From Candidatus Hadarchaeales archaeon (lineage in GTDB: Archaea > Hadarchaeota > Hadarchaeia > Hadarchaeales > WYZ-LMO6), in the NCBI GenBank assembly GCA_038851755.1, contig JAWCKR010000001.1, forward strand, positions 53,637 to 117,636: a DNA stretch of 64,000 nt. The letters are read 5' to 3'. The translations under genes were made by a program, and so were the position numbers. Positions 1-54,685 of the stretch are shown here, in pieces. The notes beneath the pieces were generated by a model. That model was not told the DNA's origin, ran no database searches, and saw nothing but the letters and a program-made list of their open reading frames with translations. Each line of letters opens with the position of its first letter. Positions within the stretch are counted from its first letter, which is position 1.

Positions 1-1210
1 TGTCGCGGATCGCGAACCTGGCAAGCTGGGGTATGTCCGAGACCTTCTCGATCACGAGGGGCTTCGTGGGCCTCACCCTGATGGTGGCCATGTCCCCCCT
101 CTTTATGAACTGGGGATGCTCCTCCACCACCTGGCCCGTCTTCGGGTCCATCTTGTTGATGATTTCCGTGATCTGGCAGGCCACCTGAGCGGTGTGAACG
201 TGGAACACGGGCGTGTAGCCCGCCGCTATGGCCGTCGGGTGCTGCAGGACCGCTATCCTGGCCACGAACTCGCTAGCCACCGTTGGCGGGGAGCTCGGCA
301 GGCCCGCCACGTCACCCCTCCTGATCTCGTTCTTGGCTATACCCCTGATGTTGAACCCGATGTTGTCCCCTGGCTCCGCCTTGGGGATGGACTCGTGGTG
401 CATCTCTATGGACTTCACCTCGCCCGTCTTCCCGGAGGGCTCGAACACCAGGGTGTCACCCACCTTGAGCACGCCCGTCTCCACCCTACCCACGGGCACC
501 GTTCCCACACCCGTGATGGAGTACACGTCCTGGATGGGAATCCTGAGGGGCTTGTCTATGGGCTTGGGAGGTATCACGAAGGCGTCCAAGGCCTGCAGCA
601 TGGTGGGGCCGCTGTACCACTTCATTTTCTCGCTCGGCTTCGTCACGTTCTCTCCGTGGAAAGCCGCCACCGGTACGAAGGGGAACTTGTCCGCGTTCCT
701 GAAGCCAACCACCTTCAGCATCTCCATAATCTCCGACCTCAGCTTCTCGTAGACTTCCTTCTTGTAGTCCACGAGGTCCATCTTGTTGATGGCCACCGCC
801 AGCTGCCCCACCCCCAGCGTGAAGGCGAGGGCGGCGTGCTCCCTCGTCTGGGGCATGATCCCGTCGTCCGCAGCCACCACCAGGATGCCTGCGTCAGCCT
901 GGCTGGCCCCTGTAATCATGTTTTTGACGAAGTCCCTGTGACCGGGAGCATCTATCAGGGTGAAGTAGTACTTGTCGGTCTCGAACTTCCTGTGGGCGAG
1001 GTCTATCGTGAGCCCGCGCTCCCTCTCCTCCTTCAGATCGTCCATCACCCAGGCGAACTTGAAGGTCTTGCCCTTGTCCCCCAGGGCCTCGAACTTCTTT
1101 ATCTCCTCCTCCTTCACCGCTCCCTTCTCGAAGAGCAACCTCCCCAGGAGGGTGGACTTGCCATGGTCCACGTGCCCCATCGTCACCAGGTTCAGGTGTG
1201 GCTTGGCCAT
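1..1210 (-). CDS. tuf: Translation elongation factor EF-1alpha (aEF1A), 3' end truncated by window edge
   Basis: Reverse strand translates [26 protein letters not shown]...[20 protein letters not shown]...NKMD (GTPase G1-G4 motifs). ATG at 1210..1208. Reading frame runs off position 1. Confidence 0.95.
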
Positions 1211-1241
1211 CTTCTCGACCTTAGTCTCGATTGTCCTCCCG

Positions 1242-1251
1242 GATTTAAATC
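1242..1251. promoter_or_regulatory. Perfect 10-bp palindromic A/T box GATTTAAATC between rps7 stop and tuf start; candidate internal promoter (TATA-like) for tuf
   Basis: Sequence ccGGATTTAAATCt. Centre lies ~36 nt upstream of the tuf ATG, with a GGGAGG run between box and start. Only A/T-rich element in the S7-tuf spacer. Confidence 0.3.
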
Positions 1252-1261
1252 TTTTTGCGTT

Positions 1262-1861
1262 TCACCTGGCCTTTTCGGCTATCCTCTCTATCTCTTCCTT
1301 CCTGGCCACGGCGTAGCTCTTGGAGTCGTACTGGGAGGCCAGGATGATCTCCTCTGCCAGGCACTCCTCTATGGGCTTTTTGTTTCTGAAGGAGGCGGCG
1401 AAGGCCCCCGCCGCCAGGTTCATCAGGGCCACGTCAATCCCCCTGGCTGGAGAGGCGTCCACCGCCAGGTGGTAGGTGATGCCCCCGTAGGTGATCCTCG
1501 TCGTTTCCTCCCTGGGGGCGGCGTAGTGGATGGCGTCCACCAGCACCTGCAGGGGGTTCTTCTTCGTCCTCTCCTCTATGATCTCAAAAGCCCTCTTCAC
1601 GATGTTGTAGGCCTTGTGCTTCTTCCCGCACGCCCCTGCCCCCCTGATCACCTTCCCCCCTATCTTCTTGGCCCCGGGACCCGACCTCATGACCTTGTTG
1701 ATAAGGCGCTCCACTATGGGCACCTCCGCTTTGCCCAAGCTCCTGGAGGCCTGCCTCCCCCCGGAGGACAGGGCGAGGGTGGGCTGCAATCTCAGGTACC
1801 TCTTCATCCCCGGGTCCCTGATCTCCACCCCCTCCGCGGACCACTTCCCAAAGTACTTCAT
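1262..1861 (-). CDS. rps7: 30S ribosomal protein S7 (uS7)
   Basis: MKYFGKWSAEGVEIRDPGMKRYL...NKVMRSGPG...HYAAPREETTRITYGGITY typical uS7. The track ORF starts at TTG 1867; ATG (MKYFGKW) at 1861 is preferred. Confidence 0.92.
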   Translation of the reverse strand: MKYFGKWSAEGVEIRDPGMKRYLRLQPTLALSSGGRQASRSLGKAEVPIVERLINKVMRSGPGAKKIGGKVIRGAGACGKKHKAYNIVKRAFEIIEERTKKNPLQVLVDAIHYAAPREETTRITYGGITYHLAVDASPARGIDVALMNLAAGAFAASFRNKKPIEECLAEEIILASQYDSKSYAVARKEEIERIAEKAR

Positions 1862-1871
1862 CTCCAAGCCC

Positions 1872-2300
1872 TCACCTCGCCGGTTTTTCCTTCCTGCCCT
1901 TCACCAGCTCCTTCAGGGAGACACCGTTCACCTTCACCACCCTGTACCTCACCCCAGGGATGTCCCCCTTCGGACCCCCCTGGGCACCTCCTATCCCCTC
2001 TATGATCACCTCGTCGTGCTCGTCGATGAACCCTATGGCCCCGTCACCGGGGGCGAAGGCGGTGACCTGCCTGCCGTTCTTCACGATCTGTACCCTCACG
2101 CACTTCCTTATGGCCGAGTTGGGCTGCTTTGCCTCCATCCCCACCTTCTCCAGAACGATGGCCCTCGCCTGCGGGGCACCCTCCAAGGGATCGGCTTTCT
2201 TGTCCAGCTCCAGCACCCTCCGCTGGTAAGCCGAGTCCTTCCACCTGAACCTCTGCCTGCTGGACCTCAGCTTCCTGGCCGCAAATTCTCCCTTTCCCAT
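1872..2300 (-). CDS. rps12: 30S ribosomal protein S12 (uS12)
   Basis: [20 protein letters not shown]...[30 protein letters not shown] typical uS12. ATG at 2300..2298. Confidence 0.93.
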
Positions 2301-2321
2301 CTCATCCCTTCCGGCGCTCCC

Positions 2322-2746
2322 TCATTTTATTATTATGTTGTGGATTCCGCAGTTCCTCTGGGCAAGCTTCTTCGCCCTCTTGATCCTTGCCCCGCCCTTC
2401 CCTATCGCCAGCCCCTTGTCCTGCTGCCTCACCTCCAGCACCGCCACCTTCTTCCCGTCCTCCTCCATGAAGGTCAGGGAACCTATCTGGGCGGGGGAGA
2501 AGAGCAGCCTGAGGAACTCCTCCGGATCCTCCGAGTATCCCACCACCTCCACCTCCTTTCCGAGGAGCCTCCTGAGCTTCTTTATATGGCACCCGTTCTT
2601 CCCCACGCAGAGCCCCACCAGCTCCTTCTGCACCAGAAACACCAGCCTGTTCTCCCCCTCGCTGAGGATGCAATCCCTGGCCTTCACCCCGCTGACCATC
2701 TCCAGGAGGGAGATGTACCTCATCTCTTCCTCGCTGAGGGTGATGT

Positions 2747-2750
<4 letters not shown>
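2322..2750 (-). CDS. nusA: Transcription termination/antitermination factor NusA homologue (archaeal KH-domain form)
   Basis: 142 aa with two KH-like GXXG segments (GKNGCHIKKL, GKGGARIKRA). Conserved position between rpl30e and rps12. ATGA overlap with rpl30e. Confidence 0.88.
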
Positions 2751-6834
<4,084 letters not shown>

Positions 6835-6846
6835 TCCCTCACCTCC

Positions 6847-9800
6847 TCAGGCCTTGTCCCGCAGCCTTATGCGGGCATCCAGGCAGAGGGACCTGAGCTC
6901 ATCCAGCATCAGCTTGAAGGCATACGGCATCTCCACGGTGTAGATCTCCGACTCCTCCTCGCAGAAAGGACAGTAGGTCCTGCCCCTCCTCCTGTCATAA
7001 ACGGCGAAGTGCCCGCACCTACCGCAGACCAAAGCGTCGAACTTGTCCGAGCTCTCCAAAAGCCTGTCCCTGAGCAGCCTGGCCGCGCCGTACCCTATCA
7101 GGCAGTCCCTCTCCATCTCCCCGAACCTGAGCCCCCCTTCCCTCGCCTTTCCCTCCGTGGGCTGGTGGGTGAGGACCTGAACAGGCCCCCTGGACCTCAC
7201 GTGCACCTTGTCCGCCGCCATGTGGTGAAGCTTCTGGTAGTAGCAAACCCCTATGAAGATCTCTGCAGGAATCATCTCCCCGGTCATCCCGTTGTACATC
7301 ACCTCCTTCCCCACGGGGTGGAAGCCCCTCTCCTTCAGCATCTCCCTGATCCTCTCCTCCGGCTCTCCCTCGAAGGTGGTGCCATCCACCTCCTTCCCCA
7401 CCAGCGCGCCAGCCTTCCCCGCCACCATCTCCAGGAGCTGTCCTATCGACATCCTGGAGGGTATGGCATGGGGGTTGATGATGAGGTCGGGGACGATGCC
7501 GCTCTCCGTGAAGGGCATATCCGCTCCGTCCATCACCAATCCCACCACTCCCTTTTGTCCATGCCTGGAGGCGAACTTGTCCCCCACTTCGGGTATCCTG
7601 AGACTCCTCACTCTAACCCTTGCCGCCCTGTTCCCTTCAGCCGTCATCACCAGATAAACCATGTCAGCTATTCCCTCTTCCCCCGGCTTTACCCTGATGG
7701 AACTCTCCCTCCTTCCCACCTCCATCTTTACCCCAAACTCGTCCGTTTCCTCGAAGAATCGTGGGGGACTGGTCCTACCTATCACCACATCCTCCACCAC
7801 GAGCCTGGACTCCGGCTCCACTATTCCCTCCTCCCCGAGGCTGGCATAATGGGAGATGTCCGAGTACCCCCTGACTTCCTCGCTGGGTATCTCGAACTTG
7901 TCCCTCTGCCCACCGGAGTACCTTCCCTCCTCGGCCTCGTAGATGGTGAAGGAGGTGCTCCTTCCCAGTCCGCGGTCTATCGAATCCCTGTTGACTATGA
8001 GGGCATCCTCCATGTTGTAACCGCCGTAACATGCGATGGCCACCACCAGGTTCTGACCGCAGGGCCTCTCCCTGAATCCCAGGAGGTCCATCACCTTGGT
8101 CCCCACCAAGGGGCGCTGCGGATAGTGGAGGAAGTAGGCGTGAGTATCGGTTCTGGTGTGCATGCTCACGGAGAAAACCCCCAGGGCCTGCTTCGCCATG
8201 TTCGCCCCGTAGGTGTTGCGGGGTGACTGGTTGTGCTCGGCGTAGGGAATGAGGGAAGCGCTGCCACCCAGCATGGCTAGGGGGTGAAGCTCCAGATGGG
8301 TGTGCTCGGGGGTGAGCTCCTCGGGGTTGACCGCCACGTAGGTGTTCTCCTCCTCGTCCGCATCCAGGTACTCGACCACCCCGCTCCTGACGAGCTCGCT
8401 CCAGCTCATCCTGCCGCTCCTGAGCATCTCCAGGTGCTGATCGGTGACCAGGGGTTTGCCGTCCTTCACCACTATCAGGGGTCTCCGCACCCTTCCCGGA
8501 TCGCACCAGACCGTTACCTCGTTGGTGTCCTTCTTGAACCTGACGTTAACCTGGTCGCTGAGCTCCCCCTTCCTCCTTCTCTCCCTTATCTCGTTGGCCA
8601 GCTTCTCCCCGTCCTCCACCGTGCCTATCACCCTCCCGTTGAGGAAGACCGCCACCCTGCCGCTGCGCTCACCTCCCTTCCTGATGGGAAAGACCCCTAT
8701 CCCGTAGAGGGTCTTCTCCACCCTCCCCTCATCATCTCCCGTGGAGATTTCGGCGGTGAGGGCGAGGTTCTTCACCAGACCGCAATTGGGTCCCTCGGGA
8801 GTTTCCGACGGACATATCTTCCCCCAGTGGGTGGGGTGGAGGTCCCTAGCCTCGAAGTGCGGCTGGCTCCTGCTCAGCGGGGAGATGATCCTGCGAAGGT
8901 GCGAGAGGGTGGAGATGTAGTTGGTCCTGTCCAGGAGCTGGCTCACCCCCGTCCTCCCGCCGGGCCAGTTCCCGGTCGCGAGGGTGTGCCTGATCTGCTC
9001 GGTGAGGAGGTCCGCCCTGGCCGCCGTCCTGAGGTTGAGCTCCCTGCCCCTGGAGTGGGAGCGCTCCAGCTGATACTTGATGTCCTTTATGAGGTTGACG
9101 AGGGCCACCCTGAAGATGTTCTCCAGCATCTCCCCGCTCAGCTTCAGGCGCTTGTTCCCGTAGTGGTCCTTGTCGTCCACCCCCCTCCTGCCCAGGGAGA
9201 GCTCTATCACCCTCTCCACCATGCTGCCCAGGAAGTAGGCCTTGGCCAGCCTGTCCTCGGGGGAGGTGCCTATGTGGGGAAGGAGGTACTTGTCCAGGAC
9301 CTCCTGCGCCCTCTGGAGCCTGTAGCTCTTCACCTGCCCTATGGCCACCCTCTTCCCTATCACGTCCAGCGCGTCCTTCTCCGTCTTTATCTCCACGCCC
9401 TCCGTCAGGTTCTCGAAGAGCTCCCTCACGATCTCCGGGTCATCGGAGACCGCCTCCACGATGTCCTTGTCCTTGACCAGGCCCAGGGCCCTCATCACCA
9501 CGACCAGCGGCAGCTGCCCCGGGACAGAGGGGAAGGAAACCCGTATCAAGCCGTCCTTCTTGCGCTCCACCACCACCAGCGCGCGGAAGCCCCGGCGGCT
9601 GGAGAAAACCTTGGCCACCTCCACCCCCAGGCGCTCGTCCCTCTCCACCAGGATGGAGTTCGTGGCCAGATCATCCTGGATGACGATGACCCTCTCCGAC
9701 CCGTTGATGATGAAGTATCCCCCCGGATCCATGGGATCCTCCCCCATGGCCACCAGCTCCTCCTCGCTCTTTCCGCGGAGGACACATATTTTGGACTTCA

Positions 9801-10164
9801 GCATCACGGGAATTTCCCCTATCATCACCGTCTGGGGGGGAGACTTCTGTCCCTTGGAGACGATGCTCATCTCCAGGTGAAGAGGAGCCAGGTAGCTCAT
9901 GTTGCGCATCCTGGCGATGTGAGGGGTAACCGTGGGGGGCCTCGAATAGGACCCGTCCGCCTCCCGGAACCAGGGTTCTCCCACCGTGATCTTGCCGAAC
10001 TCTACATGGGTCCCCTCTATGTCCAGGTCTATCCCACCCACGTCGTCTATCACCCGCTGGAGGCCATTATCTATGAAATCGTTGTAAGAGTCCAGGTGCT
10101 GCCTGACCAGGCCCCTTTCCTTCAGGAAAGCCTCCACCAGAACCCATCGGTCCCGGAGCACCAA
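6847..10164 (-). CDS. rpoB: DNA-directed RNA polymerase subunit B, unsplit (single 1105-aa polypeptide)
   Basis: N-term ...GLVRQHLDSYNDFIDNGLQ, ...GQKGVVGLV..., C-terminal Zn ribbon CGRCGHFAVYDRRRGRTYCPFCEE. Not split into B'/B''. TTG start with GGAGGG 8 nt upstream. Confidence 0.97.
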   Translation of the reverse strand: MVLRDRWVLVEAFLKERGLVRQHLDSYNDFIDNGLQRVIDDVGGIDLDIEGTHVEFGKITVGEPWFREADGSYSRPPTVTPHIARMRNMSYLAPLHLEMSIVSKGQKSPPQTVMIGEIPVMLKSKICVLRGKSEEELVAMGEDPMDPGGYFIINGSERVIVIQDDLATNSILVERDERLGVEVAKVFSSRRGFRALVVVERKKDGLIRVSFPSVPGQLPLVVVMRALGLVKDKDIVEAVSDDPEIVRELFENLTEGVEIKTEKDALDVIGKRVAIGQVKSYRLQRAQEVLDKYLLPHIGTSPEDRLAKAYFLGSMVERVIELSLGRRGVDDKDHYGNKRLKLSGEMLENIFRVALVNLIKDIKYQLERSHSRGRELNLRTAARADLLTEQIRHTLATGNWPGGRTGVSQLLDRTNYISTLSHLRRIISPLSRSQPHFEARDLHPTHWGKICPSETPEGPNCGLVKNLALTAEISTGDDEGRVEKTLYGIGVFPIRKGGERSGRVAVFLNGRVIGTVEDGEKLANEIRERRRKGELSDQVNVRFKKDTNEVTVWCDPGRVRRPLIVVKDGKPLVTDQHLEMLRSGRMSWSELVRSGVVEYLDADEEENTYVAVNPEELTPEHTHLELHPLAMLGGSASLIPYAEHNQSPRNTYGANMAKQALGVFSVSMHTRTDTHAYFLHYPQRPLVGTKVMDLLGFRERPCGQNLVVAIACYGGYNMEDALIVNRDSIDRGLGRSTSFTIYEAEEGRYSGGQRDKFEIPSEEVRGYSDISHYASLGEEGIVEPESRLVVEDVVIGRTSPPRFFEETDEFGVKMEVGRRESSIRVKPGEEGIADMVYLVMTAEGNRAARVRVRSLRIPEVGDKFASRHGQKGVVGLVMDGADMPFTESGIVPDLIINPHAIPSRMSIGQLLEMVAGKAGALVGKEVDGTTFEGEPEERIREMLKERGFHPVGKEVMYNGMTGEMIPAEIFIGVCYYQKLHHMAADKVHVRSRGPVQVLTHQPTEGKAREGGLRFGEMERDCLIGYGAARLLRDRLLESSDKFDALVCGRCGHFAVYDRRRGRTYCPFCEEESEIYTVEMPYAFKLMLDELRSLCLDARIRLRDKA

Positions 10165-10168
10165 CCCC

Positions 10169-10423
10169 CTATCCCTCCACCACGTATCTGTACGCCACCG
10201 TTCTCCCTGCCGTGAAGCTCTCCCTCTTGATCTCCACGATATCCCCGGGCTTCGCCCCTATGACCCTCGCCACCGGGTCTGAACTCTTCAGCAGGGGAAG
10301 CTGATGGGGCCTCACCCTGTACCTCTTCAGGACCTCTTCCCCCTCCTCCTTTGACAGTACTCTATGCTCAGGCACCAGCGCGTGCCCCCGGGGATCGAAC
10401 TCCTCACTCATCCTCCCGCCCAT
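10169..10423 (-). CDS. rpoH: DNA-directed RNA polymerase subunit H (Rpb5 homologue)
   Basis: 84 aa; [51 protein letters not shown] matches the RpoH family. ATG 10423..10421 lies 1 nt from the tRNA-Lys 3' end. Confidence 0.9.
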
Positions 10424-10424
10424 A

Positions 10425-10499
10425 CGGGCCTGGTGGGATTCGAACCCACGACTCCCGGCTTAAAAGGCCGGTGCGCTAGCCAGACTGCGCTACAGGCCC
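10425..10499 (-). tRNA. tRNA-Lys (anticodon UUU)
   Basis: Reverse strand GGGCCTGTAGCGCAGTCTGGCTAGCGCACCGGCCTTTTAAGCCGGGAGTCGTGGGTTCGAATCCCACCAGGCCCG. 7-bp acceptor stem, D-arm GCGC/GCGC, anticodon stem CCGGC/GCCGG with loop CTTTTAA, T-arm GTGGG-TTCGAAT-CCCAC, discriminator G, no encoded CCA; 75 nt. Confidence 0.9.
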
Positions 10500-10524
10500 A
10501 ACTAACGGAGGGGTCGAAACTACT

Positions 10525-10534
10525 TATATTTATC
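10525..10534 (-). promoter_or_regulatory. TATA box of tRNA-Lys promoter (probably also drives the rpo operon)
   Basis: Reverse strand reads aaagagATAAATATAAgtagtttcgacccctccgttagtt then the tRNA 5' G. The A/T box is centred ~30 nt upstream of the mature tRNA 5' end. Confidence 0.45.
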
Positions 10535-10600
10535 TCTTTCGGATAAGGGCCTGACGTGCCGATTTCCCGGACTTTGACTCCTCCGGGGACCCCCAAGAGC

Positions 10601-12082
10601 TCACTCGGCTTCGTATACCCTCCCCTTCTCCACCTCTCCCCTCTCGAACCTCTCCCTCATCTCGTCCGCTATCTTCTGCGCCAGGGGGGTGGGGTATTTC
10701 CCCGTGAGGCAGCCGAGACAGAGTTCCTCCCTCTTCATCCCCGTTGCCCTCACGAAGCCCTCCAGGGACTGATAGTGAACGGAGTCCGCCCCTATCAGGC
10801 GGGCTATCTCCTCCTCCCGGTGGGTGGAGCCTATCAGCTCCCCGAAGGTGGCCATATCTATGCCATAAAAGCAGGGGGAAAGGATGCGCGGAAAGGTGAA
10901 GTACATGTGGACCTCCGCGGCCCCGGCCATCCTGAGCTTCCTTATCACCCTCCTGGAGGTGTCACCCCTCACTATCGAGTCCTCCACCACCGCTATCCTC
11001 TTTCCCTTGAGGCTCTCCGTGACGTTGATCTTCTTGGAAATGATCTTCTCCCTCTCCTCGGAACTCGAGATGAAGGCCCGGTCCACCACATACCTGTGCC
11101 TCCTCACTCCCCTTTCCCAGGGTATGCCCGTGACCTCGTGCATTCCATAAGCCGCATCGTCACCCGTGGAGGGTATGGAGACTATCGCATCCACCCTTCT
11201 CTCGAGCTCCGGGTCTTCTCTGGCCAGGTTCCTCCCGAACTCCTCCCTCACCTTATAAACTGGCCTGCCATCGTGGAGCACGGAGTCGGGCCTGGCGAAG
11301 TAGGCGAACTCGAAGCTGCAGAAGGCCCTCCTCTCCCCCTCCACTATCTTCTCCCTCCTGGCCCCCTGCCCGGACCATATCAGCAGCTCCCCAGGCTGGA
11401 CCTCCGCCTCGTACCTGAACTCGTTTATGTCCAACCCCACGCTCTCGGAAGAAACAGCGAAGGTCTGGTTGTCCGGGCTGCAGCCGTAGCACAGTGGCTT
11501 TATCCCCAGCGGGTCCCGGAAGGCGAAGAGCTCCCCCCTCTGTGTGATGCCCACCACGGAGAAGGCCCCTTCCACTTCCCTCATACAGCCTTCCACCGCC
11601 GAAACCAAGTCGGAGTTCTTCAACCCCTTAAGCAGCTTCCTGGAGAGAAGCTCTATGTCGGAGGAGGAGCAGGAGGGACCCCTCGTCTTCCCCCTCAGCT
11701 CCGCCCTGAGTTCCTTCACATTCACCAGATTTCCATTGAAGGCCAAAGCCACCCTCTCCTCCCCCCCCATCACAAAGGGCTGTATGTCCCTGAGGAGCCA
11801 GTATCTGGTGCTCCTTCCGGAGGTGGCGTACCTCACGTGCCCCATCCCCACGTGGCTCTTGAAAGCCCGGAAAAGCCTTCTCACCACGGGATGCCTCACG
11901 GGTGGGAGCAGGCCGAGGGAGCGGTGGGTGAAGAAGTCCCCCTCCCTGAACTCCGCGAACCCGTGAGAGTGATGTCCCCGATGGTTCTGGGAGATTAAAC
12001 CCCAGTACACGTAGGGGAAGACCCCCTTGCCCTCAAAATCGAAAGCACCGAAGACCCCGCAGGACTCTCCAGAAACTTCCAC
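10601..12082 (-). CDS. purF: Amidophosphoribosyltransferase (glutamine PRPP amidotransferase)
   Basis: Short propeptide MEVSGES then CGVFG N-terminal nucleophile Cys. C-terminal PRTase domain (VVEDSIVRGDTS) and Fe-S Cys ligands (CLGCLTGKYP). Confidence 0.95.
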   Translation of the reverse strand: MEVSGESCGVFGAFDFEGKGVFPYVYWGLISQNHRGHHSHGFAEFREGDFFTHRSLGLLPPVRHPVVRRLFRAFKSHVGMGHVRYATSGRSTRYWLLRDIQPFVMGGEERVALAFNGNLVNVKELRAELRGKTRGPSCSSSDIELLSRKLLKGLKNSDLVSAVEGCMREVEGAFSVVGITQRGELFAFRDPLGIKPLCYGCSPDNQTFAVSSESVGLDINEFRYEAEVQPGELLIWSGQGARREKIVEGERRAFCSFEFAYFARPDSVLHDGRPVYKVREEFGRNLAREDPELERRVDAIVSIPSTGDDAAYGMHEVTGIPWERGVRRHRYVVDRAFISSSEEREKIISKKINVTESLKGKRIAVVEDSIVRGDTSRRVIRKLRMAGAAEVHMYFTFPRILSPCFYGIDMATFGELIGSTHREEEIARLIGADSVHYQSLEGFVRATGMKREELCLGCLTGKYPTPLAQKIADEMRERFERGEVEKGRVYEAE

Positions 12083-12113
12083 TCCCCCACCAGAGGGGGT
12101 TGGAGGTCCTCCC

Positions 12114-12956
12114 TTAAAATTTCTTTCCCGTAACTCTCTCGTAGCACTCGACGTACTTCTTGGAGGTCTGGAGAACGACCTCGGGAGGGAGGCGGGGGGC
12201 TGGGGGCTTCTTGTCCCATCCCACGCTGATCAGGTAATCCCTCACGTACTGCTTGTCGAAGCTCGGGGGGTCCTTCCCCTCCTGGTACCCCTCCAAAGGC
12301 CAGAAGCGGGAGGAGTCCGGGGTTAGAACCTCATCTATCAGGAGAAGCTCCCCACGGCTGGAGCCGAACTCGAACTTGGTGTCGGCTATCAGAACTCCCC
12401 TCTTCTCGGCCAAGGAAAAGGCCCTCTCGTAAAGGGAAAGGGAGAGCTCCCTGATCTCCTCCGCCACTTTCCTTCCCAGTCTCTCCACCACCTCCTCCCA
12501 CCGCACCTCCCTGTCGTGCCCGCTCTCCTCCTTGGTGGTGGGGGTGAGAAGGGGCTCCGGCAGCCTGGAGGCCTTCTTGAGGCCTGGAGGCAAATGAACC
12601 CCGCACACGCTCTTGCCAGCCGCATAGCTCTCCCAGGCTGACCCGTACAGGAAGCCCCTGACGATGAACTCGAAGGGGAAAGGGGAGGCCTTCCTCACCA
12701 GCATGCTCCTTCCGTCCACCGCCTCCACGAAGTGGCTCGGAACATCACTGAAGAGGTTGAACCAGAAAACGGAGAGCCTGTTCAGGGCCTCACCCTTGTG
12801 GGGAATGCCGTTCGGGAGCACCACATCGAAGGCCGAAATCCTGTCGGTGGAAACCACGAGGAGGTTTTCCCCCAGCTCGTAAATGTCCCTGACCTTCCCC
12901 CTCTTGTAGAGTTTGAGGGGAAGCTCCGATTGTAAGAGGGGCTCCTCTACCTCCAT
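12114..12956 (-). CDS. purC: Phosphoribosylaminoimidazole-succinocarboxamide synthase (SAICAR synthetase)
   Basis: 280 aa; ...LYKRGKVRDIYE...ADTKFEFG... typical PurC. 10-nt overlap with purE. Confidence 0.93.
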   Translation of the reverse strand: MEVEEPLLQSELPLKLYKRGKVRDIYELGENLLVVSTDRISAFDVVLPNGIPHKGEALNRLSVFWFNLFSDVPSHFVEAVDGRSMLVRKASPFPFEFIVRGFLYGSAWESYAAGKSVCGVHLPPGLKKASRLPEPLLTPTTKEESGHDREVRWEEVVERLGRKVAEEIRELSLSLYERAFSLAEKRGVLIADTKFEFGSSRGELLLIDEVLTPDSSRFWPLEGYQEGKDPPSFDKQYVRDYLISVGWDKKPPAPRLPPEVVLQTSKKYVECYERVTGKKF

Positions 12957-13426
12957 CCTCTCACAGCAGATTCGTCCGCGGAGAGGACTTCTTCCCTCCT
13001 CCTCCTCTGCCAGGAAGAGAGCTTCTCCGCCAGTCCTCTGTCCAACAGGGAGAGGATTTTGGCGGCTGCCAGGGCCGCCCCCTCCGGGTCCATCACCACC
13101 AGGGGGGCCACACCCTTGGGCATGCGCAGGGAGGAGAAGATGTCAAGGGGAAAGCTCTCCACCTTCACGGGGCAGGCTATCACGGGATGTCTCACCTGTG
13201 CGTCCACCATCCCGGAGAGAGCGTTGGACCTTCCCGCGAACGTGAGGTAGACCAGCTCCTCCCCGCTGCGCTCGTATTCCTCCAGCATCCGCAGGAGCCT
13301 ATCGGGGGTCTTGTGGGCGGAGGCCACCCGCTCCTCGAACCTCACCCCAAGCTCCCTCAGGAGGGCCCTGGCGGGCTCCGCGAACTCCACATCCGCCCTG
13401 GACCCGTAGAGGACTACGACCTTCAC
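12947..13426 (-). CDS. purE: N5-carboxyaminoimidazole ribonucleotide mutase / AIR carboxylase catalytic subunit
   Basis: 159 aa; MKVVVLYGSRADVEFAEPA...ASAHKTPDRL...FAGRSNALSGMV typical PurE fold. Confidence 0.9.
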   Translation of the reverse strand: MKVVVLYGSRADVEFAEPARALLRELGVRFEERVASAHKTPDRLLRMLEEYERSGEELVYLTFAGRSNALSGMVDAQVRHPVIACPVKVESFPLDIFSSLRMPKGVAPLVVMDPEGAALAAAKILSLLDRGLAEKLSSWQRRRREEVLSADESAVRGWR

Positions 13427-13463
13427 TGCACCCGGGAGAGGGTCGGTGGGGAAGTTTTTAATC

Positions 13464-13859
13464 CTACCGCCCTCGTCCAGCTTTCGACTCCCGGCGGCCC
13501 ATCGCTTCTTCCACGGCCTTCTTGATCATCCTCTTGGGTGGATAGGGGTAGTGCCTCCCCCCGTAGAAGTAAACCCTGCACCCGAGCTTGCACTCCCTTC
13601 GAACGAAATGACCAGCGCTCTCGGCAAGCTCCTCGCAAGAAGGGCACCTCCCCTTCGTGACCTCCTCTTGAACATCCCTACCATCCACCAGCACGGTGGG
13701 CGAACCCAAAAACCCGTGCTCCTTGGCCTTTTCCTCCGTGTCTATCAGTATTTCTTCCACCTCCGCTTTTACCCCCAGTTCTCTCAGGACCTCTCTGACC
13801 ACCTCCTTGGTCTTCAGGCACCATGGGCAGTCCAATATGTACAGAATCTGAATCTTCAC
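13464..13859 (-). CDS. Thioredoxin/glutaredoxin-fold protein (CPWC active site) with a C-terminal Cys-rich (CPSC...C..C) extension, embedded in the pur operon
   Basis: KVKIQILYILDCPWCLKTKEVVREVL...GSPTVLVDG is a Trx fold; tail ...GRCPSCEELAESAGHFVRRECKLGC. The track ORF begins at GTG 13928 inside purQ with no RBS. GTG at 13859 follows the purQ stop, preceded by GAGGGAAAGAAG; preferred start. Confidence 0.6.
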   Translation of the reverse strand: MKIQILYILDCPWCLKTKEVVREVLRELGVKAEVEEILIDTEEKAKEHGFLGSPTVLVDGRDVQEEVTKGRCPSCEELAESAGHFVRRECKLGCRVYFYGGRHYPYPPKRMIKKAVEEAMGRRESKAGRGR

Positions 13860-20789: not shown

Positions 20790-22322
20790 ATGCGGGTCAG
20801 AAACGCCCTGATAAGCGTTTGGGACAAGAGGGATCTGGAGGAGTTCGCGAGGGGTTTGACGGAACTGGGGGTTCAAATCTTCTCGAGCGGGGGAACGGCA
20901 AGGTTTCTGCGGGAGAGGAGGATACCCGTGAAGGAGGTGAGCGAACTCACGGGCTTCCCCGAGATCCTGGACGGAAGGGTCAAGACCCTCCACCCCATCA
21001 TCCACGCCGGCATTCTGGCCAGGAGGGATTTGCCCTCCCACCTGAACACCCTCAGGGAGAAGGGAATCCCCGCCATAGACCTGGTGGCCGTGAACCTCTA
21101 CCCCTTCGTTGAGACCATCAGCAAGGCCGGGGTCACGCTGGAGGAGGCGCTGGAGAACATAGACATAGGGGGACCCGCCATGGTGAGGGCTGCCGCCAAG
21201 AACTACAGGGACGTGATCGTGGTGGTCAGGCCAGAGAGGTACGGGGAGGTCCTGAGGGAGCTGAGGGAGAAGGGGGACCTGAGCGAGGAGAAGAGGCTGG
21301 AGCTGGCCGTGGAGGCCTTCGCCCACACCTCCTCCTACGACTCGTCCGTTCAGGCCTACTTGGCGGGACTGACCCACGACAAAGGATTGCCGCCCTTCCT
21401 GGGGCTGAGCTACAGGAAGGTCTCCGACCTAAGGTACGGGCAGAACCCCCACCAGAGGGGGGCACTCTACACCGAGACCCCTGCCTGGGGAATAGCGAGC
21501 GCCAGGCTCCACCAGGGGAAAGAGCTCTCCTTCAACAACCTGATGGACCTGGATGCCGCCCTGGACCTCCTCAGGGAGTTCGAGGAGACGACGGCGGTGG
21601 TGATCAAGCACACCAACCCCTGCGGGCTGGCCTCGGACCCGGAGGTCAGGAGGGCCTACGTGAAGGCCAGGGAGTGCGACCCCATCTCCGCCTTCGGTGG
21701 GGTGGTGGGGATAAACCGGAGGGTCGACAGGGGAACGGCGGAGGAGATCACCTCCACCTTCATCGAGGCCGTGGTGGCGCCCTCCTACGAACCTGAGGCC
21801 CTGGAGGTGATGAAGAAGAAGACGAACATGAGGGTGCTGGAGCTCCCCTCCTTCGAAAGCAGGGCAAGGCTCCGCTTCAGGCAGATAAGCGGTGGGCTCC
21901 TGGTGGAGGACGAGAACTCCCTCCTCCTGCGCCCCCAGGAGCTCAGGGTGGTCACGGAGAGGAAGCCCACGCCGGAGGAGATGGAACAGCTCCTCTTCGC
22001 CTGGAAGGTGGTGAAGCACGTGAAATCCAACGCCATCGTGGTGGCCAGGGACAAGCAGGCGGTGGGGGTGGGGGCGGGACAAACCAGCAGGGTGGACTCC
22101 ACGGAGATAGCCCTGAAAAAGGCGGGTCCGAGGGCCAGGGGGGCGGTCCTGGCCTCAGACGCCTTCTTCCCCTTCCCCGACTCCGTGCAGAAGGCCGCCG
22201 AGGCTGGAATCACGGCCATCATCCAGCCCGGAGGTTCCATCAGGGACCAGGAGTCCGTGAACGAGGCGAACAGGCACGGGATGGCCATGGTGTTCACCGG
22301 AGTGAGGCACTTCAAGCACTGA
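20790..22322 (+). CDS. purH: Bifunctional AICAR transformylase / IMP cyclohydrolase (bacterial-type PurH)
   Basis: MRVRNALISVWDKRDLEEFARGLTELGVQIFSSGGTARFL... (MGS-like IMPCH domain) plus C-terminal AICARFT domain (...GAGQTSRVDS...); 510 aa. Confidence 0.95.
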   Translation: MRVRNALISVWDKRDLEEFARGLTELGVQIFSSGGTARFLRERRIPVKEVSELTGFPEILDGRVKTLHPIIHAGILARRDLPSHLNTLREKGIPAIDLVAVNLYPFVETISKAGVTLEEALENIDIGGPAMVRAAAKNYRDVIVVVRPERYGEVLRELREKGDLSEEKRLELAVEAFAHTSSYDSSVQAYLAGLTHDKGLPPFLGLSYRKVSDLRYGQNPHQRGALYTETPAWGIASARLHQGKELSFNNLMDLDAALDLLREFEETTAVVIKHTNPCGLASDPEVRRAYVKARECDPISAFGGVVGINRRVDRGTAEEITSTFIEAVVAPSYEPEALEVMKKKTNMRVLELPSFESRARLRFRQISGGLLVEDENSLLLRPQELRVVTERKPTPEEMEQLLFAWKVVKHVKSNAIVVARDKQAVGVGAGQTSRVDSTEIALKKAGPRARGAVLASDAFFPFPDSVQKAAEAGITAIIQPGGSIRDQESVNEANRHGMAMVFTGVRHFKH

Positions 22323-51679: not shown

Positions 51680-51996
51680 AGAGCGTGCTGGGAATGAGGG
51701 CCCCAGAGACCCCTTGCTCCGATCCGCGCTGTCCCTTCCACGGGAGCCTCTCCGTGAGGGGGAGGGTGCTGGAGGGGACGGTGGTGAGCGACAAGAGGGC
51801 GAAGACCGTGACGGTGGAGATCCCCCGCGTCCACAGGGTGGAGAAGTACGAGAGGTTCGAGAAGAGAACCTCCAGGATCCACGCCCACAACCCCCCCTGC
51901 ATCAACGCCAGGGTGGGGGAGAGGGTGAAGATAGCGGAGTGCCGGAGGCTGAGCAAGACGAAGGCCTTCGTGGTGATAGGGAAGGAGGGGGGCTGA
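51676..51996 (+). CDS. rps17: 30S ribosomal protein S17 (uS17)
   Basis: ...[45 protein letters not shown]... typical uS17 OB fold. Confidence 0.92.
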
Positions 51997-52419
51997 ATGG
52001 GGAAGAGGGCAGGAGGCATCATGGCCACGGGCATGGCCGCCCCCGTCCGCGCGCTGCCCATAGGCGCCAGGCTGAGCTGCGCCGACAACACGGGGGCCAA
52101 GGAGATTCAGATCATCTCGGTGGTGGGGTTGAAGGGGAAGAGGAGGAGGCTGCTCTCGGCGGGGGTGGGTGACCAGGTCGTGGCCTCCGTGAAGAAGGGG
52201 ACCCCCGAGCTCAGGAAGCAGATCGTGCGCGCCGTGGTGGTCAGGCAGAGGAAGCCTTACCTCAGGAGCGACGGGATCAGGATCAAGTTCGAGGACAACG
52301 CCGCCGCCATCATCACCCCGGACGGCTCCCCCAAGGGCTCGGAGATCAGGGGGCCCATAGCCAAGGAGGCGGCCGAGCGCTGGCCCAAGCTGGCGGGAAT
52401 AGCCACGATGGTGGTGTGA
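51997..52419 (+). CDS. rpl14: 50S ribosomal protein L14 (uL14)
   Basis: ...[24 protein letters not shown]...[13 protein letters not shown]... typical uL14. Confidence 0.95.
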
Positions 52420-52800
52420 GTGAAGAGCAAAAAGCCTGGAAGGCAGAGGCTCAGGCTCCACACCATGCCCCTCCACAGAAGGCACAAACTGCTCTCCGCC
52501 ACCCTCAGTCCGGAACTGAGGGAGAAGTACGGCAGGAGGTCCCTCCCCGTGAGGAAGGGGGACAAGGTGAGGATCCTCAGGGGGGACTTCAGGAAGCTGG
52601 AGGGGGAGGTGCTGGGGGTGGACCTGAAGAGGGTGGCGGTGACGGTGGGAGGAGCCAGCACCAGGAAGGCGGACGGGACAGAGGTCCCGAGGAAGATCCA
52701 CCCCTCCAACCTCATGATCCTGAAGCTGGCCCAGGACAAGGAGAGGGAGAAGGCCCTCGCCAGGTCAAAACAGCAAAAAATTCCTACAAAATCTCTTTAA
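52420..52800 (+). CDS. rpl24: 50S ribosomal protein L24 (uL24), KOW domain, with A-rich low-complexity 3' tail
   Basis: ...VRKGDKVRILRGDFRKLEGEVLGVDLKRVAVTV... (KOW). GTG start after the rpl14 TGA. Last ~12 codons (SKQQKIPTKSL) are encoded by an A-rich stretch. Confidence 0.88.
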   Translation: MKSKKPGRQRLRLHTMPLHRRHKLLSATLSPELREKYGRRSLPVRKGDKVRILRGDFRKLEGEVLGVDLKRVAVTVGGASTRKADGTEVPRKIHPSNLMILKLAQDKEREKALARSKQQKIPTKSL

Positions 52801-52831
52801 ATCTCATTTCAAAAGAAAAAAAACGAAGAAC

Positions 52832-53962
52832 ATGGACCGGAGAGGGATTGCGCCCATCTTGCTGGTGGCAGTAATAGCAGTGGTAGCGGTGGTGGCTGGC
52901 GCTGCAGTGGTGGTGATGAGGGGAGGCGCGAAGTCAGGGACTCCTGTGTACGCTGGATCGCAGGAAGCCTCCATGCCCTCGTACCTCGCCGGACAGCTCT
53001 GGTACATGGATGTGGAAGGAATCACCATCCACGCCTACTTCATTCAGGGAAAAACCGCGGGCGAGATCCTGAGCTGGTACAGAGAGGAGATGGCTGACAG
53101 GGGCTATGAGAACTACGCGGAGCTGTTTGCAGCTACCCTTCCCATACCCCCATACGGTACCTTCGAGTGGGGGTGGATAGCGTTCAGGAAAGGGGACCGA
53201 GCTGTGGTGGTGGGTGCCTTCAGCGGGACCACGGAAGGTCAGACGGGATGCTGGTACGCCGTAGCGGAAGGACCGTTGAACAAGCTGATGCCACCCGGAG
53301 CACCGGGAGGAGGTCCGGAGCAGCTCCCTGGCTCCGACCAGGCGAGCGGTGTCGAGCCCATTAGCAGGTACCCAGGATCGATAATGCTATCGCACGAAAC
53401 CTCAGGACCTTGGCCGGACCGGATCTCGATCGGCTATGGAAGCACAGAAAACCGACACCGCGTTATAGGGAGCTGGTTCGAAACCCACCTCACCCAGGCT
53501 GGGTGGAGCGTCATAGAAGAGAGTGAAAGCGAAGAGGAGGTCGTCCTGTGGTTCAGAAAAGGTGAGAACGAGGTGGGCCTGTACGTGTACCCGCCGGAGG
53601 AGCAGAGAGCGTACTCCAGGATAAACGTGGTTTTCGATTGCTGGAGGATCCCCGAAAGGGATCTCAAATCCGGAGAGGAACCTGTCGAGCGGTACCCGGG
53701 AGCGGTGATCATCGAGTATTTGCAAGTCGTCATGCAAGGGGGAAAAACCATCACCATCAACTACGTCAGCAAAGCAGGGGCTGACAACATCTTCAACTGG
53801 TACCTGAACTCCCTGCCCCAACAGGGATGGACCATCATCGCCTATTCCCCGAGCGAGTGGGGCATCTCCGCTACGAAGGGTTACAGCACGCTGACGGTGG
53901 AGGTTTCCCCCAACGAGCGACAGTATGCGGAGATAGACGTAATGTACATGGGACCAGCATAA
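52832..53962 (+). CDS. Hypothetical secreted/membrane-anchored protein with three tandem ~95-aa repeats; atypical codon usage
   Basis: N-terminal hydrophobic anchor IAPILLVAVIAVVAVVAGAAVVV. Repeats aa 46-140, 172-270, 281-376 share EP[IV]xRYPG[SA][IV]...I.I.Y...i.[SN]W[FY]..L..[AQ]GW[ST][IV]I...W...[RK]KG...[LV].V. Codon usage (frequent GAA, AAA, TAC, GGA, GCA) differs from neighbours. Confidence 0.6.
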   Translation: MDRRGIAPILLVAVIAVVAVVAGAAVVVMRGGAKSGTPVYAGSQEASMPSYLAGQLWYMDVEGITIHAYFIQGKTAGEILSWYREEMADRGYENYAELFAATLPIPPYGTFEWGWIAFRKGDRAVVVGAFSGTTEGQTGCWYAVAEGPLNKLMPPGAPGGGPEQLPGSDQASGVEPISRYPGSIMLSHETSGPWPDRISIGYGSTENRHRVIGSWFETHLTQAGWSVIEESESEEEVVLWFRKGENEVGLYVYPPEEQRAYSRINVVFDCWRIPERDLKSGEEPVERYPGAVIIEYLQVVMQGGKTITINYVSKAGADNIFNWYLNSLPQQGWTIIAYSPSEWGISATKGYSTLTVEVSPNERQYAEIDVMYMGPA

Positions 53963-53963
53963 G

Positions 53964-53980
53964 TCTCTTCTCTTTTTTTT
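53964..53980 (+). terminator. Oligo-T tract (archaeal terminator-like) after the repeat-protein gene
   Basis: gtctcttctcTTTTTTTTg immediately 3' of the TAA stop. Confidence 0.4.
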
Positions 53981-54025
53981 GAAACCGGCATAAACAGATA
54001 AGAGGGAGCAGGCCCTAGAGGGAAG

Positions 54026-54685
54026 ATGCGCATAGACCTGCACACCCACTCCCTCCTGAGCGACGGGAAGGTCCTGCCCGTGGAGCTCGCCAGGAGGGCG
54101 GAGGTCATGGGGCACGTGGCCCTGGCCATCACCGACCATGCCGATCCCTCCAACCTCGAGAGGCTCGTGCCCCAGATCCTCAAGGCCTCCGAGGAGGTGA
54201 ACAGGAGCATGAAGATCAGGCTCGTGCCGGGAGTGGAGCTCACCCATCTCCCCCCCTCCAGCATAGGAAAGATGGCGAAGCTGGCGAGAAAGCTGGGGGC
54301 CGCCCTGGTGGTGGTGCACGGGGAGAGTCCCGTGGAGCCCGTCCCCCCGGGAACCAATGAGGCCGCGCTGAACTGCGGGGAGGTTGACCTGCTTGCCCAT
54401 CCAGGTTTCCTCTCCCCACAGCTGGCCGAGAAGGCGGAGAAGGAGGAGGTGTACCTGGAGCTGACCTCCAGGAGGGGACATTCCCTCACCAACGGGTGGA
54501 TAGCCAGGGTAGCGGGGGGGTCCGGATGCAGGCTGCTGGTGAACACCGACGCCCACGACCCGGAAGACCTCCTCACCCAGGAGGAAGCCAGGAAGGTGGC
54601 GCTGGGGGCGGGGTTGGAGAAGAGGGAAGCGGAGAGGGCCGTGAAGGAGAACCCGAGGGCCCTCCTCAAGAGGTTAGGATATTGA
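54026..54685 (+). CDS. PHP-family phosphoesterase, probable histidinol-phosphatase (HisJ/HisK-type)
   Basis: MRIDLHTHSLLSDG... (PHP motif I), ...AITDHAD..., ...HPGF..., ...NTDAHDPE... metal-binding His/Asp. Translationally coupled (TTGA) to hisC and followed by the his operon. Confidence 0.7.
   Translation: MRIDLHTHSLLSDGKVLPVELARRAEVMGHVALAITDHADPSNLERLVPQILKASEEVNRSMKIRLVPGVELTHLPPSSIGKMAKLARKLGAALVVVHGESPVEPVPPGTNEAALNCGEVDLLAHPGFLSPQLAEKAEKEEVYLELTSRRGHSLTNGWIARVAGGSGCRLLVNTDAHDPEDLLTQEEARKVALGAGLEKREAERAVKENPRALLKRLGY

Follow-up and report, generated by a model that had tools for sequence, protein, structure and literature searches.

A tRNA-Lys(UUU) gene directly upstream of rpoH as the likely origin of the RNA polymerase operon transcript in Hadarchaeota

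In a 64,000-nt stretch of the genome of an uncultured Candidatus Hadarchaeales archaeon (GenBank assembly GCA_038851755.1, contig JAWCKR010000001.1, positions 53,637 to 117,636; hereafter the window), a tRNA-Lys(UUU) gene lies immediately upstream of rpoH, the first of a string of genes encoding the core RNA polymerase. How is an rpo operon transcribed when there is hardly any room for a promoter in front of it, and where does its first open reading frame (ORF) begin? An initial annotation of this locus had proposed that the operon is transcribed from the tRNA promoter, and that RNase Z cleavage leaves a leaderless rpoH mRNA with a 1-nt 5' untranslated region (UTR). Sequence and comparison with relatives favor the first half of this proposal: co-transcription of tRNA-Lys and the rpo genes, with formation of the mRNA 5' end by tRNase Z release of the tRNA, appears likely. 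The 1-nt UTR appears unlikely.

The tRNA-Lys(UUU) gene is 75 nt long (10499..10425, minus strand; anticodon 10464..10462), contains no intron and matches Rfam RF00005 over its full length with 73.2 bits. ARAGORN calls tRNA-Lys(ttt) one base off (10500..10424); the Rfam register was preferred because it results in the canonical U8 and A14 positions, and in this register the gene has a 7-bp acceptor stem (GGGCCUG/CAGGCCC) and discriminator G10425. CCA is absent from the gene, as UAU directly follows the discriminator. tRNase Z cuts directly 3' of the discriminator in CCA-less precursors, and with its canonical cloverleaf this tRNA is a predicted substrate of the enzyme. The tRNA was the sole Rfam match, with the window scanned at the gathering threshold and the surroundings of the locus at E ≤ 1. 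The minimum free energy fold of the predicted precursor (10503..10370) did not return the cloverleaf (z = -0.8) and is uninformative.

Past the discriminator, the junction reads T (10424), ATG (10423..10421), GGC GGG AGG, ATG (10411..10409), then AGU GAG. Sequence and Rfam thus confirmed the geometry described initially, with the discriminator at 10425 and an in-frame ATG at 10423..10421 (ATG1). The second ATG (ATG2) is Met5 of the long ORF, and the 13 nt that separate it from the tRNA 3' end (10412..10424, minus strand; UAUGGGCGGGAGG) are G-rich, complementary to the anti-Shine-Dalgarno sequence and devoid of any T-run or A/T box. This spacer would be the 5' UTR of rpoH left by tRNase Z cleavage. 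An ATG located 1 nt past a tRNA end is not beyond chance by itself (about 1/64 per position, times 1/3 for the frame).

We searched for promoter signals by scanning for 8-mers with at least 7 A/T. The box before the tRNA (cluster 10521..10535) is the sole A/T-rich cluster within 300 nt upstream of rpoH, and no such 8-mer occurs between 10520 and 10169, which bears out the earlier remark that the only TATA-like box nearby is upstream of the tRNA. This putative promoter (10524..10541, minus strand) consists of a candidate B recognition element (BRE), CGAAAG (10541..10536), followed by AG and by the A/T box ATAAATATAA (10533..10524), that is, ATAAATAT(AA). CGAAAG-AG-ATAAATAT spans 10541..10526 and its A/T 8-mer lies 27-34 nt ahead of the tRNA 5' end. 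Given the usual archaeal TATA centre-to-start distance of about 27 nt, transcription is predicted to start near A10503/G10502, leaving a tRNA leader of 3-4 nt.

To compare this region, we collected relatives' DNA from the GTDB-species collection, Joint Genome Institute (JGI) metagenomes and the assembly index, and defined the window clade by its shared purF-tRNA-rpoH synteny and 77-90% identical RpoH; the synteny was also found in L081, L084, L168 and L170-L175. In an alignment (A3) of 9 distinct clade sequences, the box CGAAAGAGATAAATATAAGTAG is nearly invariant, whereas no such constraint is seen at positions -16..-7 (10 nt) or upstream of the BRE. A purine-rich BRE and a conserved A/T 8-mer at the expected distance are consistent with a genuine tRNA promoter. 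Hadarchaeota outside the window clade (L001, L002, L006, L011, L004 and L051, among others) have as many as three BRE/TATA-like boxes in succession in the region 30-90 nt ahead of tRNA-Lys (cgaaagCCTTAAAAg, TTTAAATAg, cgaaaagCATAAAAAgg), compared with a single box in the window clade. In L001 and L011, the proximal box is too near the tRNA to serve as TATA, as the predicted transcription start site (TSS) would land inside the tRNA.

Termination signals, sought as runs of at least five T, are missing from the minus strand throughout positions 1..13500, the 101-nt gap from purF to the tRNA included. Furthermore, the trailers of the adjacent tRNA-Asp and tRNA-Tyr in related genomes are T- or A/T-rich, with a T4-5 run within 20 nt in 4 of 9, and no such run was found within 20 nt in the tRNA-Lys trailers of the same genomes. 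The absence of T-runs over this range would also fit a different source of transcripts, in which the tRNA and rpo genes are mainly read through from purE-purC-purF, the box at 10533..10524 only boosts the tRNA, and the tRNA is cut out of a long pur-tRNA-rpo precursor by RNase P and tRNase Z. The purF-tRNA-rpoH synteny conserved in the clade agrees with such a scheme. However, in L081 a T5 run (GGCTTTTTATG) directly follows purF, other Hadarchaeota with tRNA-Asp or tRNA-Tyr upstream still keep the tRNA-Lys-rpoH junction, and the strongly conserved BRE/TATA before the tRNA would suffice alone. We therefore regard a main contribution from the pur genes as quite unlikely; moreover, it would alter only where transcription starts, and the tRNA-dependent release of the rpo mRNA would remain.

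The linkage itself extends far beyond the window. In a scan of GTDB species, tRNA-Lys(UUU) was found on the same strand directly before rpoH in all 15 genomes labelled Hadarchaeota or Hadesarchaea, and a same-strand tRNA-Lys(UUU) lies within 80 nt of the codon for the invariant His of RpoH in 45 of 177 rpoH loci overall. Spacers between the two genes measure 9-38 nt across Hadarchaeota (9-15 nt in the window clade, 16-38 nt elsewhere in the phylum) and are G-rich without an A/T box. Outside the phylum, the longer spacers of L017 (303 nt) and L046 (118-124 nt) are A/T-rich, with TATA-like boxes near rpoH, and have the look of an independent rpoH promoter. Other Hadarchaeota keep the junction despite different upstream neighbours (tRNA-Asp, tRNA-Tyr). 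Judging from these sequences, the tight juxtaposition of tRNA and rpoH throughout the phylum is beyond chance. Our literature search found no paper on a tRNA-Lys/rpoH linkage or on TSS data from Hadarchaeota or Hadesarchaea.

We also observed that, of the 62 loci with a tRNA in the 400 nt upstream of rpoH, 55 have tRNA-Lys(UUU) there, and the association extends well beyond Hadarchaeota. The tRNA-Lys(UUU) next to rpoH is on the opposite strand in L018, L054, L061, L069, L141 and L146, and on the same strand either 85-303 nt off (L017, L046/L133, L111) or 28 nt off (L023/L108). In Sulfolobales- and Desulfurococcales-type loci, tRNA-Lys is divergent and about 150 nt from rpoH. These arrangements suggest that the linkage is ancient or that the two genes share a bidirectional promoter region.

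Because the spacer leaves no room for a promoter, the sole BRE/TATA lies upstream of the tRNA, no oligo-T terminator intervenes and the linkage is conserved, transcription of the rpo genes from the tRNA promoter, as a same-strand co-transcript without an A/T box between tRNA and rpoH from which tRNase Z releases the mRNA, is the most economical reading. It has to be weighed against an internal promoter within the tRNA gene, which would make the tRNA and rpo transcripts independent. The anticodon loop CTTTTAAG (10467..10460) could act as TATA, with a start near 10437 and a leader of about 25 nt; indeed, it resembles the putative TATA boxes CTTATAAG (before 28747) and CTTTTTAG (before 39898). 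Alternatively, the T-loop TTCGAAT, located 25-31 nt before ATG2, could direct a leaderless transcript, and in the clade the distance from the T-loop centre to ATG2 (25-31 nt) equals the geometry of the leaderless promoters of the window. However, neither loop is preceded by a purine-rich BRE, both are universal features found in every tRNA-Lys(UUU) and hence uninformative, and TTCGAATC, with its central CG, makes a poor TATA. Furthermore, the spacer grows to 38 nt elsewhere in Hadarchaeota, so that the distance from the T-loop to the start is not conserved, and the anticodon-loop distance is likewise variable. The Shine-Dalgarno-like runs found in the spacers argue against a leaderless transcript starting at ATG2, and we know of no reported archaeal promoter internal to a tRNA gene, although the literature was not searched exhaustively for one. 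Altogether, an internal promoter seems rather improbable.

If co-transcription accounts for the mRNA, which ATG starts rpoH? The initial annotation used ATG1 (10421..10423, minus strand), as does the public 84-aa annotation, whereas ATG2 (10409..10411, minus strand) is the conserved start. In 31 of 35 distinct Hadarchaeota-type junctions, the start precedes the invariant His (H-x-LVP motif) by exactly 9 codons, and in the remaining four by 7, 8, 8 and 11; the position 9 codons before His in the window is ATG2 (Met5, 10411..10409). Within the clade, the spacer is 13 nt long in the window and L168 (both with the sequence given above), 14 nt in L081 and L088 (UAUGGGGUGGGAAG), L084 and L090 (CAUGGGGCGAAGGG), L172 (CAUGGGUCGAAGGG) and L174 (CAUGGGGUGAGAGG), 15 nt in L089 and L170 (UGUGGGGGCGGCGGG), and 9 nt in L176 (UAUGGGACG). 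Of 9 clade sequences, 8 retain an ATG at +2..+4 past the tRNA, but just two, the window and L168, its 90% relative, have it in the rpoH frame; it is out of frame in L081, L084, L090, L172, L174 and L176, and replaced by GTG in L089, hence out of frame or absent in 7 of 9. The out-of-frame ATGs open unrelated, non-conserved ORFs of 2, 20, 30, 37, 52 and >130 codons. ATG1 is in frame in the window because the spacer measures 13 nt instead of 14, a lineage-specific length difference of one base.

Given this conserved distance to His, and an ATG1 that joins the rpoH frame in no clade sequence but the window and L168, ATG2 is probably the conserved rpoH start and the assignment of ATG1 probably wrong. 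Comparing this junction in related genomes had been suggested initially as a check, and the comparison speaks to both halves of the proposal: a tRNA-adjacent ATG is not conserved as the rpoH start (in frame in 2 of 9), and the tight tRNA-Lys-rpoH linkage is kept throughout Hadarchaeota. With the start at Met5 in 31 of 35 junctions and the adjacent ATG mostly out of frame, neither an rpoH start at 10423 behind a 1-nt 5' UTR nor a leaderless mRNA made by processing is borne out. Leaderless mRNAs have been defined by a 5' UTR of ≤8 nt (PMC4247193), with the 5' end at the true start; the leader predicted here is 13 nt, and those of the clade are 9-15 nt.

The window RpoH is identical to P0001 of a Candidatus Hadarchaeales metagenome-assembled genome, annotated by NCBI at 84 aa, and most close RpoH homologues are annotated at 80 aa. 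The four additional N-terminal residues, MGGR, have no counterpart among other RpoH proteins. Public rpoH lengths within the clade are inconsistent (80, 84 and 93 aa). The 93-aa annotation (P0003; L081:2501-2782, also L082 and L083) starts from a GTG that belongs to the T-arm of tRNA-Lys; the N-terminus is translated tRNA and an annotation artefact.

The spacers also carry putative translation signals. Taking GAUCACCUCCU as the anti-Shine-Dalgarno (anti-SD), a 16S 3' end that was assumed and not read from this genome, we found that every spacer holds a complementary run (-3.6 to -12.2 kcal/mol), mostly ending 3-5 nt before the start. In L081 and L174, GGGGUG(A) begins 2-3 nt past the tRNA end and ends 3 nt before ATG, with pairing energies of -9.5 and -10.6 kcal/mol under the same assumption. 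This placement matches the Shine-Dalgarno (SD) cores of the internal genes of the window, where GGAGG or GGTGA starts at -14..-9 (e.g., rpoA' GGAGGTGAGGGA-ATG). An SD located 2-3 nt from the tRNA end implies that the mRNA begins no further downstream than the tRNA 3' end. The canonical distance of GGGGUG(A) in these relatives suggests that the ancestral state was an SD-led short leader, which has become degenerate in the window. There, GGAGG starts at -5, with zero spacing to ATG2, and only GGG is present at -10..-8. The initial annotation had used the GGGAGG abutting the AUG as an argument against Met5. Such an arrangement is indeed atypical here, cores being normally at -14..-9; however, relatives carry GGGGUG(A) at the canonical distance from the conserved ATG. 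In L174, the spacer (L174:1187-1203) reads C AUG GGG UGA GAGG AUG, so that the AUG next to the tRNA begins a mini-ORF of 2 codons, its stop overlapping the GGUGA SD core 4 nt ahead of the rpoH start; this overlap is probably coincidental.

We surveyed gene starts in the window using a crude ORF map. First genes of other operons have an A/T 8-mer centred 26-36 nt before their start, at 20790(+), 20734(-), 27097(+), 28747(+), 36008(-), 13426(-) and 39898(-), and are probably translated from leaderless mRNAs. Apart from rpoH, only one mapped gene has an SD core abutting its AUG, and that gene looks leaderless. First genes with A/T boxes and internal genes with SDs give this Hadarchaeota genome the dual pattern familiar from other archaea.

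Several of these observations weigh against our reading. The organism evidently has a leaderless initiation pathway, to judge from these gene starts; ATG1 is in frame in the window and so remains usable there; the SD of the window is degenerate, as its best anti-SD pairing, GGGAGG, abuts the AUG in a manner atypical for the genome; an internal promoter is conceivable, the anticodon loop CTTTTAAG being similar to putative TATA boxes of the genome; and purF has no downstream T-run in the window, so read-through from the pur genes may contribute. The first three points, together with the in-frame ATG1 of L168 and the public 84-aa annotation of P0001, would favor synthesis of RpoH from ATG1, tRNase Z leaving a 1-nt 5' UTR and the leaderless pathway, whose machinery exists if operon-first genes are leaderless as they appear, translating the rpo mRNA. 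Nevertheless, we find this unlikely. The adjacent ATG is present in 8 of 9 clade sequences and out of frame in 6; if a processed 5'-UAUG were an efficient leaderless start, these six relatives would mis-initiate on their rpoH mRNA. Furthermore, MGGR is without counterpart in any other RpoH, and the start 9 codons before His is conserved phylum-wide. A lineage-restricted variant is doubtful as well: in the window and L168, a change of GGGG to GGG in the SD spacer may have both weakened the SD and put the AUG in frame, switching rpoH from an SD-led mRNA to a functionally leaderless one made by tRNase Z.

Taken together, co-transcription with tRNA-dependent release would proceed as follows. tRNA-Lys(UUU)-rpoH-rpoB-rpoA'-rpoA''-L30e-nusA would form one transcription unit, driven by the BRE/TATA at 10541..10524 with a start near 10503. 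RNase P would trim the 3-4 nt tRNA leader, and tRNase Z would cut after G10425, yielding a CCA-less tRNA and an rpo mRNA with its 5' end at U10424. RpoH would then be translated from the ATG at 10411..10409 as an 80-aa protein, after a G-rich 13-nt leader and thus not in a leaderless manner. This leader would descend from an SD leader such as the GGGGUGA of close relatives. The ATG at 10423 would belong to the conserved trailer/SD sequence and be in frame only in the lineage of the window and L168, probably through a 1-nt change of the spacer.

A structural role for the tRNA flanks was considered and rejected. By eye, the 5' flank (AGCCGCTTTCT) seemed able to pair with the trailer (...GCGG...) in several Hadarchaeota, as in a leader-trailer helix or a bulge-helix-bulge (BHB)-like stem. 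RNAduplex energies were compared with those of dinucleotide-shuffled leaders, and cognate and non-cognate leader-trailer pairs were compared in a matrix. For the window clade, duplex energies equal those of shuffled leaders (z -0.9 to +0.8), and the cognate leader is outperformed by others. The matrix showed no general covariation, the G-rich trailers pairing with nearly any leader. The 5' arm is near-invariant in most clades (alignment A2) and holds little information on pairing. Values above background were restricted to L004/L005 (-30 kcal/mol, best of 17 leaders), L006 and L011. A leader-trailer stem is further disfavored by the proximal TATA, from which transcription would start only past the 5' arm. 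Visual inspection of the strongest case revealed no 3-nt bulges separated by 4 bp, although BHB motifs were not searched for systematically.

A long complementary pair flanks tRNA-Lys in L004 (2355-2480) and L005 (155-280); its arms in L004, -26..-7 and +4..+23, form 19 bp with two mismatches (-30 kcal/mol). L051 (2362-2486) has a perfect 8-mer at the homologous place, compensatory relative to L004 (cagccgcg/cgcggctg vs cagctacg/cgtagctg). The 5' arm of L004, L005 and L051 would be transcribed only from a more distal A/T box, and the pair is absent from the window clade. We consider this pairing a probable lineage-specific curiosity outside the mechanism of the window.

The genes around the locus, identified by Pfam searches on the window ORFs (G+C of the window, 63.6%), are all on the minus strand. 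Upstream of the tRNA lie purE (13426..12947), purC (12956..12114) and purF (10601..12082; amidophosphoribosyltransferase, GATase_6/7 and Pribosyltran), the stop of purF being 101 nt ahead of the tRNA. The ORF at 10423..10169 (84 aa) is RpoH/Rpb5_C (Pfam E=4e-29); from ATG2, rpoH (Rpo5) occupies 10169..10411 (80 aa plus stop; RNA_pol_Rpb5_C). It is followed, 5 nt past its stop, by an unsplit rpoB (6847..10164, ~1105 aa; Rpb2 domains 1-7), then by rpoA' (4222..6834, 870 aa; Rpb1 domains 1-5), whose ATG is preceded at 4 nt by the SD GGAGGTGA, and rpoA'' (3033..4220, 395 aa; Rpb1 domain 5). L30e (3046..2747) and a NusA-like KH protein (2750..2322), both assigned by Pfam, continue the same gene string, and S12 (2300..1872) and S7 (1867..1262) lie further downstream. 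An A/T-rich box (AACATAATAATAAAATGA) at 2322-2339 (minus strand), at the 3' end of the nusA-like gene and centred about 32 nt before the S12 start (2300), is likely an internal promoter for S12-S7; the rpo transcription unit may end or be supplemented there. Elsewhere in the window, the seemingly gene-poor stretch 51900..54100 contains ordinary ORFs, and no repeat array was seen on a quick look.

Co-transcripts of tRNA and mRNA are already known; what is particular here is that core RNA polymerase genes lie downstream, behind an extremely short spacer, and that the arrangement is fixed across a phylum. In Thermococcus kodakarensis, a tRNA-Lys (TKt03) lies within the 159-nt 5' UTR of TK0306, for which differential RNA-seq (dRNA-seq) found one TSS upstream, and the two are 'apparently co-transcribed' (Jaeger et al. 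2014, PMC4247193). In both cases an archaeal tRNA-Lys immediately precedes a protein gene of the same strand. However, TK0306 is a DEAD-box helicase gene at a single locus, with a co-transcript backed by dRNA-seq (PMC4247193), whereas the Hadarchaeota case concerns the core RNA polymerase operon, has a spacer of 9-38 nt, is phylum-wide and is supported by sequence comparison. In Haloferax, RNase P and tRNase Z release RNAs flanked by tRNA-like elements in vivo with exact ends (PMC4946936); that system relies on engineered or non-tRNA t-elements, compared with a genuine tRNA before an essential operon here. In Arabidopsis mitochondria, too, mRNA 5' ends are set where RNase Z cuts 3' of an upstream tRNA or t-element (Forner et al. 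2007, PMC1920247).

Organellar tRNA punctuation cuts long polycistrons at many sites, unlike the single tRNA before one operon described here. Animal mitochondrial mRNAs made in this way are leaderless, an analogy drawn in the initial annotation; in contrast, our comparison points to a 13-nt SD-derived leader. In the E. coli thrU-tyrU-glyT-thrT-tufB operon, a housekeeping gene of gene expression is transcribed from a tRNA promoter and parted from the tRNAs by processing. As in that operon, synthesis of the gene-expression machinery would be tied in Hadarchaeota to the activity of a stable-RNA promoter. The E. coli operon differs by its use of RNase E and RNase P, its encoded CCA, its sigma-70 promoter under stringent control and a much longer spacer between the last tRNA and tufB.

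In practical terms, comparative frame analysis points to a single rpoH start amid inconsistent annotations within the clade. If co-transcription with tRNA-Lys is correct, tRNase Z would provide the rpo mRNA with a 5'-monophosphate terminus in place of a primary end, which would bear on how processed 5' ends are translated and protected. Furthermore, the rpo operon of a whole phylum would lack its own promoter, and production of RNA polymerase would depend directly on how active a stable-RNA promoter is, which would bear on the coupling of transcription to translation capacity in archaea.

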